DNA of 37,437 bases from an uncultured Candidatus Bathyarchaeia archaeon (GTDB taxonomy: Archaea; Thermoproteota; Bathyarchaeia; TCS64), in the NCBI GenBank assembly GCA_964653295.1, contig CAZZFH010000001.1:1-37437 (forward strand). The letters are read 5' to 3'. Each line of letters begins with the position of its first letter. Position 1 is the first letter of the stretch. Positions 2,150-27,895 of the stretch are shown here, piece by piece. The notes beneath the pieces are model-generated. The model was given only the letters and a program-made list of their open reading frames with translations. It was not told the DNA's origin and made no database searches. A program made the position numbers and the translations under genes.

Positions 2150-3763
2150 TTATATTCCCTCATGGAGAACCTTGTACTCTTTATCGGGTCCAGGTTTTGT
2201 GAGACTCCACTCATAGCCACGTTGAGTAGTAACATACTCGGGCCAAGGCAGATCAATGGGTGGATAGAAATCCTTCGGCAGCAACGGAGCAACCCATTTA
2301 CTACCACCTATGCCTCCTCCAGTTCGTTCCTCAAACTCTTTCTGGGCCTGTGCCAGCTCAGATGGATTGGACAGGATATCGATGATGGCGGTACCAAGCG
2401 TCTTTGAGGCGGTGATGATCCCAGGGTCTATACAGGCTGAATAACCATTCAAAGCGAATCTAGCCCACATTGGTAGGGGTTGATCAGGGTTAGGGTTCCT
2501 GAGACTGGCGTTTGCGGTGTTGAGCCTCGTTGATGGGGCTGTCCACTGATAGTCGACATAGTCGTCACTGCCTTGAGTATTTACCCACGGGGGGAACTGG
2601 TACCTGATATCCTTATCAATATAGTCGATTGGCGATATCTTCTGGCATGCCTCAGTGAATGGATCATCCATGGGTTTAAAGCCCAAGTTCTCCTGTAGCT
2701 TGCGTCCAAACTCCTTGGCTTCCTCATTGAACACTGGTGGACCAACTAGTTGCAGGTTCCTGTAGATTATCTCTGATAGCTTCTTGTTGCTGAGCCCTAC
2801 CCTTGTTCTCGCGATGATTCGCTTGGTTACCCTAGTACCTGTGATCTGGGCTACTCCTTTGGCTGTGTTATCCAAGACATCTGATATCTGCTGCTGCATC
2901 TCAAGTATTGGAGCCCTGTGAGCGTATTGTATCTGGGCAATTCGTGGGGGTAGGTTATCGCTTGTGGCTTGTCCCCCCACCATTATGTACTCGTTGAGGG
3001 TCCAATACGCAGTATAGGGCAGCATCGCGTCCTCAACATACTTTGTTGCAGTATACATCAGACACACAGCGTCCAGTGCAGCTGGTATCCGCCCACCCGA
3101 GTGACCCAGCATCTTGAATGGGATATTCTTTGGCCTGAACCATTTCTCAGGGTTGACCGTCTCGAATGTATAGAGGGTGTTCCAGTAGCTGGCGGCGTTG
3201 ATCTCATATCGAACAGTATTGTACCCGGCTGGGTGATACGGCAACGAGGCGTTGAAGTCATCGAAGTAACCCTTTGCCGCATGCACAGGCTTTGAACCAC
3301 ATACCTTCTCGGCTGGCTCACCAAACAACTTCAAAGTTCCCTTCAAGCCATGCTTCTCCATAGCGTGTTTGGCTGCTAGGAACCCGAATAATGCACCAGT
3401 CCCTAATCCGCTATGTGGGTCAGTGTGCCCAGCTGCGTATGGATGTAGTTTATCGTCTCTAGGTTTCTTGTAGGGAACATTCGCCTGACTGGTCCCAGGA
3501 ACGGCGTCATACTCAGCGAATCCACCGATAACTGGTTTCCCATTGCCCCACACAGCGCAGAACGCTGTGGGCATCTCTCCGCTTCCCGCTTCCACTGTCC
3601 AGCCATCCTCACTGAGGAGCTTCACATAACCCGCAGCAGACTTGTACTCCCTGAACGCTGGTTCAGCGTAGTTCCATATCTCCATGTGGAAATCAGACAG
3701 CCACTCCCTGTTATCGTCAAGATAGTCTAGGGCGGTCTGCTTTTCCTTCTGAATCTTACTCAA
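2150..3763 (-). CDS. M20-family amidohydrolase, AbgB-like (p-aminobenzoyl-glutamate hydrolase subunit B family)
   Basis: 537-aa ORF. The N-terminal third (DFHMEIWNYAEPAFREYKSAAGYVKLLSEDGWTVE...MPTAFCAVWGNGKPVIGGFAEYDAVPGTSQ) parallels E. coli AbgB (IWDHPETRFEE...IPNAFIASFGQGKPVIALLGEYDALAGLSQ). TTG start preceded by GGTGA with a 6-nt spacer. Confidence 0.75.
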   Translation of the reverse strand: MSKIQKEKQTALDYLDDNREWLSDFHMEIWNYAEPAFREYKSAAGYVKLLSEDGWTVEAGSGEMPTAFCAVWGNGKPVIGGFAEYDAVPGTSQANVPYKKPRDDKLHPYAAGHTDPHSGLGTGALFGFLAAKHAMEKHGLKGTLKLFGEPAEKVCGSKPVHAAKGYFDDFNASLPYHPAGYNTVRYEINAASYWNTLYTFETVNPEKWFRPKNIPFKMLGHSGGRIPAALDAVCLMYTATKYVEDAMLPYTAYWTLNEYIMVGGQATSDNLPPRIAQIQYAHRAPILEMQQQISDVLDNTAKGVAQITGTRVTKRIIARTRVGLSNKKLSEIIYRNLQLVGPPVFNEEAKEFGRKLQENLGFKPMDDPFTEACQKISPIDYIDKDIRYQFPPWVNTQGSDDYVDYQWTAPSTRLNTANASLRNPNPDQPLPMWARFALNGYSACIDPGIITASKTLGTAIIDILSNPSELAQAQKEFEERTGGGIGGSKWVAPLLPKDFYPPIDLPWPEYVTTQRGYEWSLTKPGPDKEYKVLHEGI

Positions 3764-3863
3764 AAATAATCACCAATACCATATTGATCTAGGGTATATA
3801 CATTATTTACCAACACGTGTACCGAAAACTTATCTCTTCAGAGAGAGTCATAAACAGGCATAG

Positions 3864-4700
3864 GTGAAAGAATTGGTTACAGTTACTTTCGTAAAGATTG
3901 GTTTCATAGGTACAACTATAATAATCGAGGCTCTCCTCGATGAGCGAAGCGCAAGAACAGACCTCAAGATGAGGGTAGTCTCATGTGGGGTAAGCATGGA
4001 TGAGGCAGACGCAGAGGAAGTCAGCAAAATCGCGGCTGGCATCAAGTCTGATCTCTATGTGGTAATATCACCCAACGCTGCACTGGCTGGACCTAAAAAA
4101 GCCAGAGAGGTACTAAAAGAGACAGGAAAACCCATTATCGCCATCAGTGATGAGCCAAGCAGAAAAGCGATGAAACAACTCCCAGAGGAAGGGATAGGAT
4201 ACATAGTCATATATGGAGACCCCATGATTGGGGCAGTCACATCATTCCTCGACCCAGTGGAGATGGCTATATTTAATGGGGATGTCTTGAAGGTTCTCAG
4301 CGTGACAGGTGTATTCAGGCTGATTCATTCGGAGCTTGACAGGGTATTGGACGAGATAAAAGCTGGACAGAAACCCACGTTACCAGAGATCGTTATCACC
4401 AAGATGTTGGCTCTAGAACACAGTGACTTGCAGAATCCTTATGCATATGCAAAAGCCTTGGCTGCCTTTAATATGAGTCGAGACGTGGCAAGCCTAACCA
4501 CAGAAGGAGTATTCAAGACAGAGGACCGAACAGAAACCATACACAAGGTCACAGCAGCCCACGAACTAATCAGACAAGCAGCGAAGCTAGCTGATGAGGC
4601 TCGTGAGATAGAAAAAGCCAATGACACAGTCATGCGATACACCCACTTCAAGAAAGGCGATAGAAGAAGAAAGACCGAGCTTCACGGAAAACATGAGTAA
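3864..4700 (+). CDS. mtd: F420-dependent methylenetetrahydromethanopterin dehydrogenase
   Basis: 278-aa ORF collinear with Mtd as recalled (VKIGxIxxGNIG-like N-terminus, ISPNAA..GP.KARE, GYI.V..DPMIGA...FLDP.EMA.FN.DV.KVL, AREIEKANDTV). The start is GTG 3864, or more likely TTG 3873, which sits 5 nt after GGTGA. Confidence 0.88.
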   Translation: MKELVTVTFVKIGFIGTTIIIEALLDERSARTDLKMRVVSCGVSMDEADAEEVSKIAAGIKSDLYVVISPNAALAGPKKAREVLKETGKPIIAISDEPSRKAMKQLPEEGIGYIVIYGDPMIGAVTSFLDPVEMAIFNGDVLKVLSVTGVFRLIHSELDRVLDEIKAGQKPTLPEIVITKMLALEHSDLQNPYAYAKALAAFNMSRDVASLTTEGVFKTEDRTETIHKVTAAHELIRQAAKLADEAREIEKANDTVMRYTHFKKGDRRRKTELHGKHE

Positions 4701-5233: not shown

Positions 5234-5737
5234 ATGCGTTGCGAGGTATGCGGACGAGAAATACATGGACCACCATACTACAGAGTTATCGAGGGCGGCA
5301 GACTTACGGTCTGCTCACAATGCTCAAAGTTCAGCGACCAAGAATGGGACCCCAAAAGACCCCAAGCAAGAAAGAGTCCAACACGCAGGAGATCAGCACA
5401 ACCACAGCCCAGACGGCGAAGCGACATCGAGACAGCAGAATCCCTAGAACTCGTAGAAGGTTATGGTATGATCATCAAGAAGGCGAGACAGAAAAAAGGA
5501 ATGTCAGTCGAGGATTTCGCTAAGAAGATAAGCGAGAAAGAGTCTGTGGTTAAGAAGCTTGAGAAAGAGAATATGAACCCACCCTTGAATCTGGTTAGGA
5601 AGGTCCAGCGAGAACTCAGCATCAATATTCTTGAGGAAGCTGAGACAGGAAGCGGAGCGGTCCTTACAAGACCAATGGGACCGAGAACGCTTGGAGACCT
5701 AATAAAAATCAAGGACTCCACCAAGAAAGAGGAATAA
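5234..5737 (+). CDS. mbf1: Archaeal multiprotein-bridging factor 1 (MBF1): N-terminal Zn-ribbon plus C-terminal HTH
   Basis: CEVCG...CSQC zinc ribbon, a basic linker, then a cro/C1-type HTH (IKKARQKKGMSVEDFAKKISEKESVVKKLE). Confidence 0.85.
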   Translation: MRCEVCGREIHGPPYYRVIEGGRLTVCSQCSKFSDQEWDPKRPQARKSPTRRRSAQPQPRRRSDIETAESLELVEGYGMIIKKARQKKGMSVEDFAKKISEKESVVKKLEKENMNPPLNLVRKVQRELSINILEEAETGSGAVLTRPMGPRTLGDLIKIKDSTKKEE

Positions 5738-5739
5738 TC

Positions 5740-6324
5740 ATACCATCTATCATTCTTTTAACTGGTACTCCTGGGACCGGCAAGACCACCGTAGCCAAGA
5801 TTTTATCCACTGAACTGGATGCGAGACACATTGAGTTATCAGTTTACGCAATGGAAAATGGGTTAATTCTGGAGAATGACGCTGAGAGGGATACACAGAT
5901 AGTTGATATGGATGCCCTTAGGGAATCACTTTTAGAGCTTACAAGCCACACAGAACAGACCATCATAGTCGATGGGCATTACAGCCATGAATTATTTGAT
6001 GTAGAACTGGTGAACCTCGTCATAGTTCTCAGGAAAGCCCCATGGGAGCTATATGATGTACTCCAGAACAGGCTGTACAGCTACGAGAAGGTCTGGGAAA
6101 ACCTAGAAGCAGAGATAATGGGAGTAATCTCAGATGAAGCACAAGAATATCCAAGGGAGAAACTACACGAGATAGATACAACGGGTAAATCTGCTGTAGA
6201 GGCTGCTGAGGATATCTTAGGGGTTATCAGAGGCGAAAAGCCTGCAAGCTTTGGTCCCATCGACTGGGTTACATACCCAGAGACCCTCAGAGTATTGGTG
6301 AACAGGACATGTACTTTATCATAA
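5740..6324 (+). CDS. Fap7/AK6-like adenylate kinase (ribosome-biogenesis NTPase); start assigned to non-canonical ATA 5740
   Basis: The ORF track starts at ATG 5851, but the same frame is open from 5644. It encodes (I)PSIILLTGTPGTGKTTVAKILSTELDARHIELSVYA upstream, which is the Walker A P-loop of this family. There is no ATG/GTG/TTG in frame between 5644 and 5850. ATA 5740 lies 2 nt after the mbf1 stop and about 7 nt after AGAGGA. Confidence 0.75.
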   Translation: MPSIILLTGTPGTGKTTVAKILSTELDARHIELSVYAMENGLILENDAERDTQIVDMDALRESLLELTSHTEQTIIVDGHYSHELFDVELVNLVIVLRKAPWELYDVLQNRLYSYEKVWENLEAEIMGVISDEAQEYPREKLHEIDTTGKSAVEAAEDILGVIRGEKPASFGPIDWVTYPETLRVLVNRTCTLS

Positions 6325-6533: not shown

Positions 6534-6595
6534 GCACCTGAAAAGTTTCTGATTTTTATACTGGTACTGTATGATAGTAGGGCAGAGGAATAATA

Positions 6596-7018
6596 TTGGC
6601 GGCCGTAACAGGAAGAAAATTCTTTGAAGAACTTGGACAGCTTGTCGGAAAACCAGTAATAGTCGAGGACGCAGCTGGAAAGACCTATGAGGGAAACCTC
6701 CTCGGGTTTGATTCACAGAGTATGAGCGTCGCTATGGGTGACGTGAAAGGCTCACAAGGAACTCTATACCACAGGCTATTCATAACAGGCAATACAATCA
6801 CGAAAATCATGGCCACAGATACACCGTTCAATCTTGACGGACTCAAAGAGAGACTCGATAGAGTCTTCCCAAACATGGTTCAGTACTTCCCAGAGGCAGG
6901 GGTAATGGTTGTAATGAACAAGATCAGGGTCAACGAGACAGGTGTAATAGAGGGAACTGGACCCGCTGCAAGCAGGGTTCAGGACATCTATAATAGGTTC
7001 ATCCAAGAAACCTCATAA
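6596..7018 (+). CDS. Sm-like (LSm) domain protein with a C-terminal extension
   Basis: 140-aa ORF. The N-terminal LVGKPVIVEDAAGKTYEGNLLGFDSQSMSVAMGDV...LFITGNTITKI fits the Sm1/Sm2 fold pattern. TTG start follows AGAGGA with a 6-nt spacer. Confidence 0.6.
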   Translation: MAAVTGRKFFEELGQLVGKPVIVEDAAGKTYEGNLLGFDSQSMSVAMGDVKGSQGTLYHRLFITGNTITKIMATDTPFNLDGLKERLDRVFPNMVQYFPEAGVMVVMNKIRVNETGVIEGTGPAASRVQDIYNRFIQETS

Positions 7019-7193: not shown

Positions 7194-7784
7194 ATGGAAA
7201 TTCAATATGAATCCGAGTGGATGAACCCCACAATAGAGCTTATGAAATGCCTAGGAATTATGGGAAAGCCAATAAGAAACGAGGAGATGGGCTCTATTGA
7301 CTATAAGATTGATAATGATAAGGAAAAAAAATTGATCCGTGCGATAGTGGATAAGAATAACCACGCTGCACCTGTTTATGTTGATGTAATTCGAGGGACA
7401 ATCGAAGAACTTGAAGAAAACAAGTATGATGAGGCAATAATTCTCTCAAAGAGGATAACCAACTCGGCGCATGATCTTGTAGCCAAGATAGAAAATCTGA
7501 GCATAATTACTCCCAACATGAAGAACAACTTCAATCTGATAGAAGTATTATCTGCAATACAGAAAAAAACCATAGATCTTTGCGAGATGAAATGTGGAAA
7601 AGCCCCAGAGACCAAAGAAGACTGTAAGGGCAAGACAGGAAGAAGCTACGAGTGCGATATTCGCAGGATAAGCGATGATGCTACATTCCATGCAACTATG
7701 AAATGGAAGAATGTGCTTTTAGAAGATTTCAACAACCTGTGTGAAGTAGAGAAAGAGATGAAAACCAACCTGGGGGTGAACTAA
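7194..7784 (+). CDS. Hypothetical protein; visibly low-GC, with a C-terminal Cys4 cluster
   Basis: 196-aa ORF. No family recognised. It contains CEMKCGKAPETKEDCKGKTGRSYEC (C-x3-C-x10-C-x8-C). Its last codons contain the GGGGGTGA SD for the downstream eS30 gene. Confidence 0.55.
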   Translation: MEIQYESEWMNPTIELMKCLGIMGKPIRNEEMGSIDYKIDNDKEKKLIRAIVDKNNHAAPVYVDVIRGTIEELEENKYDEAIILSKRITNSAHDLVAKIENLSIITPNMKNNFNLIEVLSAIQKKTIDLCEMKCGKAPETKEDCKGKTGRSYECDIRRISDDATFHATMKWKNVLLEDFNNLCEVEKEMKTNLGVN

Positions 7785-7959: not shown

Positions 7960-8103
7960 AAATTTACTTACTTTTTCTATTCCTATTTTTTAGTGTTTTA
8001 GGTCAAATACCTAAGACTTATAACATACTATTTTCGTTAAAGGGGTAACTTATTTGTTAGATAAGTGGAAATTTCAAAATAGAAAACAATTGAGAGGTGA
8101 CAT

Positions 8104-8307
8104 ATACTGAGAGGCGTAGTTAAGAAATGGTTATACGATGATGGATTTGGATTCATCAAAACAAAAGATACTAAGAAGGATATTTTTTGCCACAGTCGAG
8201 ACGTGAAAAACTGTTATGATCTAGATAGTGGAGATGTAGTCGAGTTCGAGATCGAGAAGACCGATAAAGGCGTAAGAGCCGTCAACGTGAAGATAGTTTA
8301 TAACTAA
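8104..8307 (+). CDS. Cold-shock-domain (CSD/OB-fold) protein; non-canonical start at ATA 8104 or CTG 8107
   Basis: Absent from the ORF track. Hand translation gives (I)LRGVVKKWLYDDGFGFIKTKDTKKDIFCHSRDVKNCYDLDSGDVVEFEIEKTDKGVRAVNVKIVYN*. It has an RNP1-like GFGFI and an RNP2-like IFCHS. The frame opens at 8101 (TGA at 8098-8100). A strong SD, GAGGTGA, sits at 8093-8099. Confidence 0.75.
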   Translation: MLRGVVKKWLYDDGFGFIKTKDTKKDIFCHSRDVKNCYDLDSGDVVEFEIEKTDKGVRAVNVKIVYN

Positions 8308-8357
8308 TTCACATTTTTTAGACCAAATTATATACTGCATATTGTATTTGATGCCCT

Positions 8358-9944: not shown

Positions 9945-10107
9945 AAAAAGGGGTTTTTGATTATTTTAAGTAACATATAAAAAGGGCATTGCATTTTAGT
10001 GCCCTGTCCCCCTAGGGGAAATAGCGCGAGTTGTTCGTCAGGGAAAGGACTGAAAGACCGCTCCAAGCAGGAGCATAAATGGTTTTTCGACTAGGTTAAA
10101 GAATACA

Positions 10108-14608: not shown

Positions 14609-14687
14609 TGGTGCTCCCGCCGGGATTCGAACCCGGGTTCTCCAACTCGAAAGGCTGGAATGCTTGTCCGGACTACACCACGGGAGC
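14609..14687 (-). tRNA. tRNA-Glu (anticodon UUC), genomically encoded CCA
   Basis: The reverse complement GCTCCCGTGGTGTAGTCCGGACAAGCATTCCAGCCTTTCGAGTTGGAGAACCCGGGTTCGAATCCCGGCGGGAGCACCA folds as a cloverleaf. Acceptor stem is GCTCCCG/CGGGAGC, anticodon stem CCAGC/GTTGG, anticodon loop CTTTCGA, and T-arm CCGGG-TTCGAAT-CCCGG. Confidence 0.93.
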
Positions 14688-14779: not shown

Positions 14780-14858
14780 GGGCCTGTAGCTCAGTTTGGC
14801 CTAGAGCACCTGGCTCATAACCAGGGGGTCATGGGTTCAAATCCCTTCAGGCCCACCA
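14780..14858 (+). tRNA. tRNA with CAU anticodon. It is Met by anticodon, but the body resembles archaeal tRNA-Ile, so it may be tRNA-Ile2 (agmatidine-modified, AUA-decoding). CCA is genomically encoded.
   Basis: GGGCCTGTAGCTCAGTTTGGCCTAGAGCACCTGGCTCATAACCAGGGGGTCATGGGTTCAAATCCCTTCAGGCCCACCA. Acceptor stem is GGGCCTG/CAGGCCC, anticodon stem CTGGC/ACCAG region with loop CTCATAA. It is not initiator-like, since there is no AGCGGG 5' end. Confidence 0.9.
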
Positions 14859-16610: not shown

Positions 16611-16632
16611 TTTTTCATAGGGGGAATCCCCA

Positions 16633-17829
16633 GTAAAGACTGAGGCAGCGATAATCGGAGCCGGTCCGGCGGGATTACTGGCTGCTGATGTTATTTCTAA
16701 GCATGGTTTTAGTGTTGAGGTTTTTGAGGAGCATGGACAGGTAGGCTACCCTGTTCACTGCGCTGGTATGGTTAGTGTTGAGGGGTTCAGCAGGCTGGGC
16801 ATCGAGATAAAACCTGTTTTCCACCAGAACACGGTTTTCGGGGGAAGGATTTTCTCGAGTGATGGCAGCTGTATTACTATCAGGGACAGGAAACCTAGAG
16901 CCTATATCATTGATAGGGGGCGGTTTGATGCTTATCTCGCTGAGGTGGCTGAGGGTAATGGTGTAAACATCAATACAGCGAGACGGGTTGATCAAGTTAT
17001 CTTCAAGGATGGCGTTGCTACGGGATTGAGGGTCGGGGGCTCAGAGATTGCGTCAAAGATTACTGTTGACGCTGAGGGGGTTTTGGGCAGGGTTCTGTCT
17101 AGATCGGGTGTTTCTACTTGTCAAGTGGGGGTATTGAACGGGTTTAATGTGGAGTTTGATGTGGAAGATATTGAATCTGATATGGTTGAGGTGTGGTTCA
17201 ACCAAGAGACCTCCAAGGACTTTTTCACATGGGTGATCCCGATCAAAGAAAATCGGGTAAGATGTGGCTTAGCTACCTCAAGCAGTGATGGGGTAATGGC
17301 GCTCAAACACTTCATCGAGAAGCGCTTCAATAAAGAACCCTCATCAACAATCCACGGCGGACTCGTATACACAGGGGGACCAGTAAATAAAACCGCTTAT
17401 CCGGGTTTATTGTTGGCAGGGGATGTAGCAGGGCAGGTTAAACCCACCACTGGTGGTGGGGTGGTGATTGGGGGGCTTTGCGCCCACTTAGCGGGGGAGT
17501 TTGGTGCAAAGGCGTTAGGAGAAGATGTTGGTGTGCTTGGTGAGTATGAGAGAGAGTGGCGGAGAAGATATGGCTCTGAGCTTCAGACCATGCTCATCAT
17601 GCGAAGACTGGTTAATGGTTTAAGTGATGACCAGCTGAATAAAGCAGTACACGCCTTTATTGAGGAGGGATTGGACGAGAAATTCACCCACTTGGTTGAA
17701 GAAGGAGACATGGACATGCAGGCAGGTATAATCAAAAGAGCGTTAACTGACCCAGCGATACTAGCTTCTCTCGCACGCTCATTAGGGAGACTCGTGGTCT
17801 CAGAGTTCTTCTCGGCTTTTGGGCTCTAA
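16633..17829 (+). CDS. Geranylgeranyl reductase-family flavoprotein (archaeal lipid saturation); no canonical start codon
   Basis: The ORF track starts at ATG 16768. The same frame is open from 16621 and encodes ...PVKTEAAIIGAGPAGLLAADVISKHGFSVEVFEEHGQVGYPVHCAG, the FAD-binding GxGxxG beta-alpha-beta, upstream of that ATG. There is no ATG/GTG/TTG in frame between 16621 and 16767. Candidate starts are GTA 16633 (after AGGGGGA) and ATA 16651 (5 nt after GAGG). Confidence 0.75.
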   Translation, partial: VKTEAAIIGAGPAGLLAADVISKHGFSVEVFEEHGQVGYPVHCAGMVSVEGFSRLGIEIKPVFHQNTVFGGRIFSSDGSCITIRDRKPRAYIIDRGRFDAYLAEVAEGNGVNINTARRVDQVIFKDGVATGLRVGGSEIASKITVDAEGVLGRVLSRSGVSTCQVGVLNGFNVEFDVEDIESDMVEVWFNQETSKDFFTWVIPIKENRVRCGLATSSSDGVMALKHFIEKRFNKEPSSTIHGGLVYTGGPVNKTAYPGLLLAGDVAGQVKPTTGGGVVIGGLCAHLAGEFGAKALGEDVGVLGEYEREWRRRYGSELQTMLIMRRLVNGLSDDQLNKAVHAFIEEGLDEKFTHLVEEGDMDMQAGIIKRALTDPAILASLARSLGRLVVSEFFSAFGL

Positions 17830-26540: not shown

Positions 26541-27895
26541 CTATGAGAAATTAGATGAGAGACTAGATATTTTCTCAAGTTTCTCCAAGTTGTCAACCTG
26601 CGTGATTATCCTTGAGACCTTATCGCTTGGGAGGGTCATGGATGCGAACGCGGTGAACTTTTCCTTGATGAACTCCAGTGGAATGGGTTGCTTGTCTTCC
26701 TCAAAAAGGTGATAACGTCTACCATCGCGGGTGAATATCTCAAGCCTTGTCCCTATCTTCGTGGGGAAGACCTCATCGATGACTGGATCAATATAAACCT
26801 CGGCTTTCTGCCCAAGCTCAACCACCCGGGGATCAGTGTAACAGTCAAAGAACTCCTTCATGAAAACCTGTCCCTCAACAAGGGCTATGGCAACTGCTAC
26901 TGCAGGGTGATTCTGGGCGTGGAGTGGGGTCTCGGCTACCTTGAGCTGGTTCTCAGCTGTGATGTGGTTCAACCCTATCCTGATCTTTTCTATGTCATCG
27001 ATCTCGATCCCATTCTCTTCCTGTAAGTCCAGCGCCATCTTGATGGGGGGACATAGCTCGTGGCAGCAAGCATAGGGCTTGAACTTGCATTTGAGAATCT
27101 TATAATCCGTGCCCAAGCCCTCGGTTAAACGGTTCAAGTCGTAGCCTTCAGCGTGAGACGCCAATAACCCATACTTTCCCTCGAAAACCGTACAAGGACC
27201 AGTATAGCCCTCACGAGCCAAGAGGGCGGCTAGGACCCCATTCATGGCAGCCTTCCCAGCGTGCAACCGCTTACTCATATCACCTGTGGTCAGCCATTCC
27301 TCTAAACCTGCTGCCTGAGTCCCAGCCAATCCAAAGGCGTTTACCAATTCATCCTCGTTTAACCCAAGCAACTTACCAGCAGCAGCAACTGCACCAATAG
27401 TGCCTACTACGCCTGTTGCGTGGAAGCCCCTGTTCCTGAGCCCGGGATAGACAGCGCTATCGACCCTACAGCTCACCTCATAACCGGCAACCAGAGCCAC
27501 AATAAGGTCTCTACCAGTTACCTGCTCTGCCTCTGCTACTGCTAAAGCAGCGGGTATGATGCATGCTCCCGGGTGTGCCCAGCTGGGGCGTGCCCTGAGT
27601 CATCTGCATCTATTCCATGAGCCATTGTTCCGTTTGCTAGGGCAGCCATTATCATGGGGTATTTTGTTGTTTCTCCGAGTACAGTGGATTGGGGTTCTCC
27701 CTTCATCTGCCGTACAATGTTGATGACCATCTGGCTCCACGGTAATTCGTGGGCGCCTAGGATGTTTCCAAGTGAATCTAGGAGATGCATCTTGGTTTTT
27801 ATTACTACTTCTGGGGCTAGGTCGTTGTACTTGAGTTCTGAAACATATTTGGCGAAAATCCGTGAGTATTCTTCCATATAGACACCGTGCTTCAT
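26541..27895 (-). pseudogene. MmgE/PrpD-family dehydratase gene interrupted by a single frameshift
   Basis: ORFs 27542-27895 and 26541-27500 are the N- and C-terminal parts of one PrpD-fold protein. The upstream frame ends ...AHGIDADDSGHAPAGHTREH...*. The adjacent frame reads ...SWAHPGACIIPAALAVAEAEQVTGRDLIVALVAGYEV, the conserved D.DD...HPG..IIPAALA block. The switch must lie between 27578 and 27599, around a G4/C4 run at 27585-27588. Confidence 0.75.

Follow-up and report, generated by a model that had tools for sequence, protein, structure and literature searches.

The 37,437-nucleotide (nt) stretch analyzed here, referred to as the window, comes from an uncultured Candidatus Bathyarchaeia archaeon (assembly GCA_964653295.1, contig CAZZFH010000001.1) and carries at 8107 to 8307, on the plus strand, a gene for a small cold-shock protein (CSP) whose reading frame lacks a canonical start codon. 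The genes around it encode an archaeal Lsm protein, a 196-amino-acid (aa) protein without known function (unk196), and the archaeosine tRNA-guanine transglycosylase TgtA. Positions 8090 to 8112 of the plus strand read ttGAGAGGTGAcatataCTGaga; from 8090 these are tt, GAGAGGTGA, and catata, followed by the codons CTG AGA GGC GTA GTT AAG AAA TGG. Upstream, the cold-shock domain (CSD) frame is closed by TGA at 8098 to 8100 and farther out by TAG at 8080 to 8082, with no start codon between them. An earlier sequence-only reading of this DNA had placed the opening of the frame at 8101, after that TGA, and the sequence confirms it: the open frame runs through CAT (8101), ATA (8104), and CTG (8107) to AAC and the TAA at 8305 to 8307. 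The first in-frame ATG, GTG, or TTG is GTG 8203; a protein begun there would have only 34 aa and would lack both GFGFI and FCH. The list of open reading frames (ORFs) shows only this 34-aa ORF at the locus. Since both RNP motifs are encoded 5' of GTG 8203, before any canonical codon, the claim that a functional CSP requires a noncanonical start here was upheld.

The coding sequence from CTG 8107 specifies a 66-aa single-domain CSP, (M)RGVVKKWLYDDGFGFIKT...NVKIVYN. When translated from 8101, the product matched Pfam family PF00313 (CSD) at 59.9 bits against a cutoff of 27 (E = 2.1e-16), with residues 4 to 64 aligned to profile positions 2 to 64 of 66 and the Arg after CTG at position 2. Matches to CspA and Thermotoga maritima Csp (TmCsp) in the PDB had E values of 2.5e-8 to 7e-8, and the CTG-started protein aligned residue 1 to residue 1 with T. 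maritima Csp and Bacillus subtilis CspB, both of 66 aa and with solved structures. The nucleic-acid-binding motifs are an RNP1-like D-G-F-G-F-I at residues 12 to 17 and an RNP2-like I-F-C-H-S at residues 26 to 30, the latter a variant form with Cys replacing Val. G13, G15, F16, F27, and H29 were invariant in 28 sequences, and the family has kept 24 invariant residues, the RNP motifs among them. Residues 27 to 40 (window positions 8185 to 8226) form an invariant F-C-H-S...N-C-Y-D-L-D segment with the invariant cysteines C28 and C36, where bacterial proteins have the V-F-V-H-F... region; the two cysteines may form a disulfide or a metal site or confer redox sensitivity. None of the named bacterial Csp equivalogs in NCBIfam (CspA, CspC, CspD, CspE, and CspG) scored above its cutoff, the best being CspE at 47.3 bits versus 120, and by this measure the protein belongs to a distinct archaeal subfamily. 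The nearest protein homologs and all 13 genome loci came from Candidatus Bathyarchaeota/Bathyarchaeia metagenome-assembled genomes (MAGs) or from one unclassified uncultured archaeon MAG. The product is an ordinary CSP, though a subfamily-specific one, with putative cold induction and RNA-chaperone activity.

The gene appears to have its own transcription unit. An A-rich BRE-like element and a TATA box (TTATAA, 8018 to 8023) lie on the plus strand at 8004 to 8028 (CAAATACCTAAGACTTATAACATAC), and the alignment of 22 ortholog upstream regions identified this as the most conserved noncoding block (AAAAC-N-AAG-N-TTATAAC-A-N-AC, with TATAAC nearly invariant). Its consensus and position suggest that it is the BRE and TATA promoter of the gene. 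The transcription start site (TSS) is predicted at GTAAC, 8045 to 8049, about 26 nt after the TATA center and conserved in most orthologs; this placement follows the usual archaeal TATA-to-TSS distance and would imply a 5' leader of about 60 nt. An inverted repeat, ACTTAT-ttgttag-ATAAGT (8048 to 8066), lies at the predicted mRNA 5' end and is present in most orthologs with a loop of 3 to 13 nt and some compensatory changes in the inner stem (CC/GG versus TT/AA). Two loci (L001 and L006) have a different stem, ATTGTC/GACAA, and in four others (L010, L015, L022, and L028) the repeat is not present. RNAalifold gave the repeat a weak energy (-1.97 kcal/mol) and weak covariation (a term of -0.1), and for this reason we make no claim that it is an RNA element; it may form a weak hairpin at the 5' terminus or bind a protein. 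The remainder of the leader (8067 to 8093) is an A-rich, unstructured linker, and the orthologs are likewise A-rich here. Folding of positions 8047 to 8150 gave a minimum free energy of -9.2 kcal/mol, which is weaker than that of shuffled controls (mean -12.0, z = +1.1), and a scan of the window at Rfam gathering thresholds returned two tRNAs only, with no cspA-type element found.

The stop codon of the previous gene is at 7784, 323 nt 5' of the CTG, with the conserved promoter block between the two. On the other side of the gene, a T6 run just after the stop codon (8314 to 8319, plus strand) is a candidate archaeal terminator, and a T-run with AGACCAAATTATATA is kept 3' of the stop in most syntenic orthologs. 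It is followed by the tgtA promoter (TTATATA, 8328 to 8334), with the tgtA ATG about 27 nt after this TATA box, a distance suggesting that the tgtA mRNA is leaderless or nearly so. The separate promoters and the T-run argue that the CSP gene is monocistronic and that coupling to an upstream gene cannot account for its start, in agreement with the earlier statement that the gene stands alone and that reinitiation does not explain it.

A Shine-Dalgarno (SD) sequence, GAGGTGA, which we take to be complementary to the 3' end of archaeal 16S rRNA, occupies 8094 to 8100 on the plus strand and ends in the in-frame TGA by which the reading frame is closed on its 5' side. The sequence-only reading had recognized this SD, which is indeed present, but had placed it one position off, at 8093 to 8099; the spacings it gave for CTG and ATA (7 and 4 nt) were also incorrect, the actual distances from the final A being 6 and 3 nt. 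It had overstated the case in calling this the best SD in the window, where GAGGTGA occurs in three exact copies against 5.6 expected by chance. This count carries no significance of its own; what makes the motif significant is where it lies and that orthologs conserve it. GGTGA is invariant in all 30+ orthologs, except for GGAGTGA in one clade, and the SD lies 4 to 6 nt from the start in the orthologs (8 nt in L022).

About 40 related loci entered the comparison. Ortholog loci (L numbers) were collected by translated-DNA scans of species-representative genomes and metagenome contigs with two peptide patterns. Gene callers were not involved, and translated scans were chosen because protein databases are biased, holding only gene-caller output. 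All 30 full-length orthologous loci carried CTG (22), TTG (7), or ATG (1) at the codon homologous to 8107; the non-redundant tally at 97% nucleotide identity, window included, was 16 CTG, 6 TTG, and 1 ATG. CTA, CTC, CTT, and TTA were found at codon 1 in none of the 30. The internal Leu codons of the same genes were TTA (16), CTT (11), CTC (10), CTA (6), CTG (2), and TTG (0), that is, 43 of 45 were non-NTG. Synonymous sites were saturated among 21 non-redundant orthologs (median pS 0.76), with a median dN/dS of 0.09, suggesting that the CSP gene is under strong purifying selection and that its silent sites have fully turned over. Given this saturation, and given that only 4% of internal Leu codons are NTG, the invariable NTG at codon 1 indicates a constraint to start-competent triplets. 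The chance of finding NTG in all lineages under ordinary Leu usage is roughly 0.044^10 or less, a rough figure in that the lineages, at least ten of them mutually saturated, were counted by eye on the tree. Parsimony on the neighbor-joining tree makes CTG ancestral and requires at least three changes to TTG and two independent changes to ATG (L030 and L038). By these comparisons codon 1 is not frozen, and it varies among start-competent triplets only. Together with the N-terminal alignment to Csp structures, the ortholog tally and the Leu-codon control make it highly probable that the CTG at 8107 to 8109 (plus strand) is the translation start.

Both ATA 8104 and CTG 8107 had been put forward as candidates behind the strong SD, and the orthologs decide for CTG, given that all 30 have CTG, TTG, or ATG at that position. 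Initiation at ATA would give M-L-R-G-V-V-K-K-W; the codon is in frame and 3 nt past the SD, and ATA appears to start a P-loop kinase gene in the same lineage (see below). However, ATA is found at this place only in the window and in L014, L042, and L010. The codon before CTG is otherwise GAA, AAG, AAA, TTT, GTT, AGA, ACA, TTA, AAC, AAT, or TAT, and this lack of conservation argues that ATA 8104 is not the start. In addition, an SD spacing of 3 nt would be shorter than that of all other SD-led genes here (4 to 8 nt), and the ATG and TTG codons of orthologs sit at the CTG position rather than the ATA position. We consider an ATA start very unlikely.

A canonical start might also be reached by another route, namely, the GTG within the SD, read-through of TGA 8098, or a frameshift from another frame. 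In the clade with a 5-nt SD spacer, the GTG of the SD falls in frame and is taken as the start by gene callers. The window and 12 of 27 catalogued loci, all with CTG and a 6-nt spacer, instead have the TGA of the SD in frame and the GTG out of frame. The close relatives L003 and L016 (6 nt) and L002 and L004 (5 nt) differ in this way and yet have an identical protein N-terminus, which argues that the GTG is not the start. The SD-embedded GTG also has no SD of its own, and the further in-frame TAG at 8080 with no start codon after it speaks against read-through of the TGA. Such routes are, in our judgment, about as improbable as the ATA start. An even smaller probability attaches to the window copy being a decaying pseudogene, or the product of a sequencing or assembly error, from which no protein is made. 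The absence of a canonical start would fit this explanation, as would the defects in two relatives (an in-frame stop in L022 and a frameshift in L032), but the comparative data effectively refute it. More than 20 assemblies, made independently and from different samples, show the same CTG as the window, L014 and L042 with near-identical leaders. This recurrence excludes a sequencing error or frameshift hiding a canonical start, a concern raised by the sequence-only reading. The dN/dS of about 0.09 at saturated dS, the conserved promoter, SD, and short spacing (4 to 6 nt, 8 nt in L022), and the 24 residues kept invariant, RNP motifs included, are likewise at odds with decay. CTG 8107 is the start that we retain.

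Three further observations concern the orthologs themselves. The in-frame TAA of L022 is at codon 51 and the frameshift of L032 follows about codon 16; these disruptions either stem from sequencing errors, the metagenome contigs being short, or mark occasional pseudogenes. In L012, L029, and L032, the minus strand encodes a second, divergently oriented CSD paralog of 64 aa, which lies some 0.6 kb upstream from the CSP gene. This paralog starts TTG-EGTVKRWLDRG... after GAGGTGA-aagaa and is SD-led and non-ATG. The same MAG (CAZLHX01) has two copies of the main CSP, both TTG-started.

Database annotation bears the marks of this start codon. Most homologs in databases are 66 aa long and have M or L at the CTG position, and NCBI annotation already starts the CSP at CTG in two MAG contigs (JAOZIG010000311.1 and SPBR01000055.1). 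Three Prodigal-type entries of 62, 62, and 49 aa (P0013, P0024, and P0030) are 5'-truncated CTG-start genes for which the callers resorted to a GTG or ATG farther inside. Calls of 68 to 70 aa that start VTEL or MNKL (P0009 to P0011 and P0017) begin at the SD-embedded GTG. Prodigal-type callers miss the gene, shorten it to 62, 49, or 36 aa, or lengthen it by starting at the GTG of the SD. About 70% of the orthologs are CTG-started and open to truncation or loss, so CSPs are probably undercounted in Bathyarchaeia and perhaps in other archaea, which bears on claims about the cold adaptation of sediment archaea.

The genes of the genome block show how starts are distributed in this lineage. All five SD-led genes were non-ATG, and all six genes without an SD started with ATG, a tally from a small sample that was not blindly selected. 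For four of the genes without an SD, ATG was invariant in orthologs (unk196, 8/8; tgtA, 14/14; beta-CASP, 6/6; HTH_3, 2/2). Three of the SD-led genes have TTG. The Lsm gene (start region 6581 to 6598, TTG 6596, plus strand) has AGAGGA-N6-TTG, with TTG in six of seven relatives. The methylene-H4MPT dehydrogenase (MTD) gene (3861 to 3875, TTG 3873, plus strand) has AGGTGA-N5-TTG, with TTG also in L038, and mechanical ORF listing chooses the SD-internal GTG (3864) instead. A gene for a 537-aa protein (2150 to 3763, start region 3763 to 3780, minus strand) has GGTGA-N6-TTG, as does its L038 ortholog, for which the caller chose a downstream GTG. A scan for SD-plus-ORF arrangements over all collected DNA, noisy from internal motifs, found CTG starts only in the CSP orthologs.

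A gene for a P-loop kinase (Fap7/adenylate-kinase-like; 5644 to 6324, plus strand) lacks an ATG, GTG, or TTG back to the stop at 5641, and its Walker A motif (GTPGTGKT) lies 5' of the first canonical start, ATG 5851. The candidate starts are ATA 5734 and ATA 5740, where GAGGA is followed by ATA-AYN-ATA; the relatives L011 (943..), L038 (6275..), and L041 (774..) share ...AAAGAGGA ATA AYN ATA.... The TAA of the upstream HTH_3 gene overlaps the first ATA. The kinase start thus looks like a conserved ATA, possibly coupled to the upstream gene. A gene caller cut the L038 ortholog to 139 aa, and NCBI starts that of L041 at the first ATA. Given that L038 has ATG for the CSP gene and ATA for the kinase, weak starts are gene-specific rather than set by a single global switch.

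Several other features of the window were recorded. A FAD-dependent, geranylgeranyl-reductase-like gene (16621 to 17829, plus strand) encodes its GxGxxG motif (IIGAGPAG, from 16651) 39 codons before the first ATG (16768). The frame has no canonical start back to the stop, and GAGG at 16642 to 16645 is followed, after 5 nt, by ATA 16651. A palindrome, GGGGGAATCCCC, lies at 16620 to 16631, and a homolog search with the N-terminal region (16621 to 17070), made to test this candidate second noncanonical start, returned one distant match only (36% identity). In six diverged Bathyarchaeia loci, the 54 nt from 10054 to 10107 (plus strand), upstream of the beta-CASP/RNase-J-like gene (ATG 10108), show conservation at all three codon positions that exceeds that of the neighboring coding sequence. 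This stretch contains a hairpin, GCCCC-aagca-GGGGC in relatives and, with a compensatory change, GCTCC..GGAGC in the window, and is a candidate for a conserved element in the 5' untranslated region (5'UTR) of this ribonuclease gene. On the minus strand, two ORFs of 352 and 117 aa (26541 to 27599 and 27542 to 27895) overlap in different frames and look like one frameshift-split gene; in the downstream part, 33 codons are open ahead of the first canonical start. A misassembly, a pseudogene, or programmed frameshifting could account for the split. Finally, tRNA-Glu(UUC) (14609 to 14687, minus strand) and tRNA-Met(CAU) (14780 to 14858, plus strand) are divergently arranged. The latter was considered as an unusual initiator and rejected, since it is an ordinary elongator with G1-C72 and the anticodon stem CCUGG/CCAGG.

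We propose that the CSP gene is transcribed from its own BRE/TATA promoter into an mRNA whose leader, about 60 nt long, is A-rich and unstructured. GAGGUGA, a near-perfect SD, would pair with the 3' end of 16S rRNA and set the triplet 5 to 6 nt downstream in the P site, where the initiator Met-tRNA would accept CUG despite the first-position mismatch. The weakness of the codon would be offset by the strong SD and by the open leader, and the product would be the 66-residue CSP with the usual M-R-G-x-V-K-K-W N-terminus. This outline agrees with the SD model of archaeal initiation in Pyrococcus abyssi, in which, after SD pairing, the tRNA samples P-site triplets (PMC6237735). Judged on the comparative evidence, we are fairly confident that this is a monocistronic CSP gene translated from CUG 8107. 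Across the orthologs the weak codon is the conserved state of the family, probably the ancestral one, and it interchanges only with UUG and, rarely, AUG. The gene also fits a local rule of this lineage, by which weak or near-cognate starts (UUG, CUG, AUA) go with an SD and AUG goes with its absence (leaderless or short-leader genes).

Several points weigh against this interpretation. The archaeal factor aIF1 is reported to destabilize non-AUG initiation complexes (PMC6237735), and switches to CUG were extremely rare in surveyed prokaryotes, at 2 of 61,358 AUG starts and 1 of 2,468 UUG starts (PMC5622118). Taken together, these reports would leave efficient CUG initiation without demonstrated precedent in archaea. 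The window shows no enrichment of the GAGGTGA motif. For one clade only, that with the 5-nt spacer, the in-frame GTG of the SD could, strictly speaking, still serve as the start. The support for a CTG start is wholly comparative for every member of the family, and the residue inserted at CUG may be either Met or Leu. Ribosome profiling in Haloferax volcanii gave about 30% near-cognate putative initiation sites, which were set aside in that study (PMC7261190). In the literature on CUG and other starts in archaea or Bathyarchaeota and on the CSPs of these lineages, we did not find this feature described. The use of CUG as the conserved majority start of an archaeal gene family, in a lineage of weak-start, SD-led genes, appears to be undescribed.

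We also considered that the CUG could be a selected regulatory device, a refinement of the proposal above in which CSP synthesis is set by initiation stringency (the level or activity of aIF1) or by temperature. Sensing of stress or cold, which in bacterial cspA is the task of a structured 5'UTR thermosensor, would then fall to the start codon itself, the rationale being that a mismatched codon-anticodon helix is better tolerated in the cold. CTG is the majority and the parsimony-ancestral state despite saturated synonymous divergence, and ATG arose only twice, in L030 and L038. Both of these lineages have an SD spacer of 4 nt, compared to 5 to 6 nt elsewhere, which hints at co-adjustment, although the correlation has an n of 2. 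The leader is without a stable thermosensor structure or an Rfam cspA-type element. Moreover, a weak start is unexpected for CSPs, which are normally highly expressed, given that highly expressed genes prefer AUG (PMC5622118). On the other hand, the interchange of CTG and TTG, at least three times on the tree, fits near-neutrality of two weak codons equally well, and the SD-led housekeeping genes for Lsm, MTD, and the kinase are also weak-started, so that the pattern looks lineage-wide rather than CSP-specific. These two observations favor tolerance or tuning over a control point, and a regulatory role for the CUG is, in our assessment, possible but rather unlikely.

The same low expectation applies to a broader proposal for Bathyarchaeia, in which mRNAs without an SD (leaderless or short-leader) need AUG, SD-led mRNAs are systematically kept on UUG, CUG, or AUA, with each gene retaining its own codon across saturating divergence, and the CUG of the CSP gene is a selected aIF1 or temperature control point. 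If it were true, the eukaryote-like initiation machinery of this lineage would accept CUG and AUA efficiently once an SD anchors the subunit. A CUG-majority family beside a kinase with a conserved AUA is a natural test case for the handling of near-cognate codons by aIF1 and aIF2. The simple lineage rule (SD-led genes with weak starts, genes without an SD with AUG) could be tested over thousands of MAGs.

A conserved near-cognate start is itself a known kind of feature, as illustrated by the AUU of infC, eukaryotic CUG ORFs, and SD-led UUG genes. The protein shares its fold family (PF00313), its length of 66 aa, and the GFGFI and F-x-H motifs with bacterial CSPs such as Escherichia coli CspA, B. 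subtilis CspB, and T. maritima Csp, and it aligns end to end with TmCsp (1g6p) and CspB. Bacterial CSP genes are likewise monocistronic, and their mRNAs have long leaders and strong SDs. The archaeal gene differs in its host, in its CTG rather than ATG start, and in the F-C-H-S...N-C-Y-D-L-D motif with two Cys, and its unstructured leader, with no Rfam match, is unlike the cspA 5'UTR thermoregulator of bacteria.

The infC gene, which encodes IF3, has an AUU start that is a conserved noncanonical start used for regulation in bacteria. The CSP family resembles it in having a near-cognate start conserved across the orthologs of one gene behind a good ribosome-binding site. It differs in that the codon is CUG, with a first-position mismatch, in another gene and another domain of life, and fidelity would depend on aIF1 and aIF2 rather than IF3. 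There is no sign of an autoregulatory loop, given that CSPs are not among the factors controlling initiation fidelity. In eukaryotic CUG-initiated ORFs, near-cognate initiation is policed by eIF1, and CUG is the best-tolerated near-cognate codon. Here, the start would be positioned by SD-anti-SD pairing instead of scanning and Kozak context, and the CUG would be the sole start of a main ORF rather than that of an isoform or upstream ORF. Archaeal aIF1, aIF1A, and aIF2 have homologs among the eukaryotic factors (PMC6237735). The closest likeness in arrangement is to the SD-led UUG and GUG genes of archaea and bacteria, in which a weak start follows an SD that is both strong and conserved, as it does with TTG in the Lsm, MTD, and 537-aa genes of this window. 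UUG-start genes are reported to have better conserved SDs, in Archaea too (Belinky et al., PMC5622118). The CSP family differs from these in that CUG, to which switches are 10 to 100 times rarer than to GUG or UUG in surveyed genomes (PMC5622118), lies outside the three codons of standard gene finders and is nevertheless the majority state of the family.

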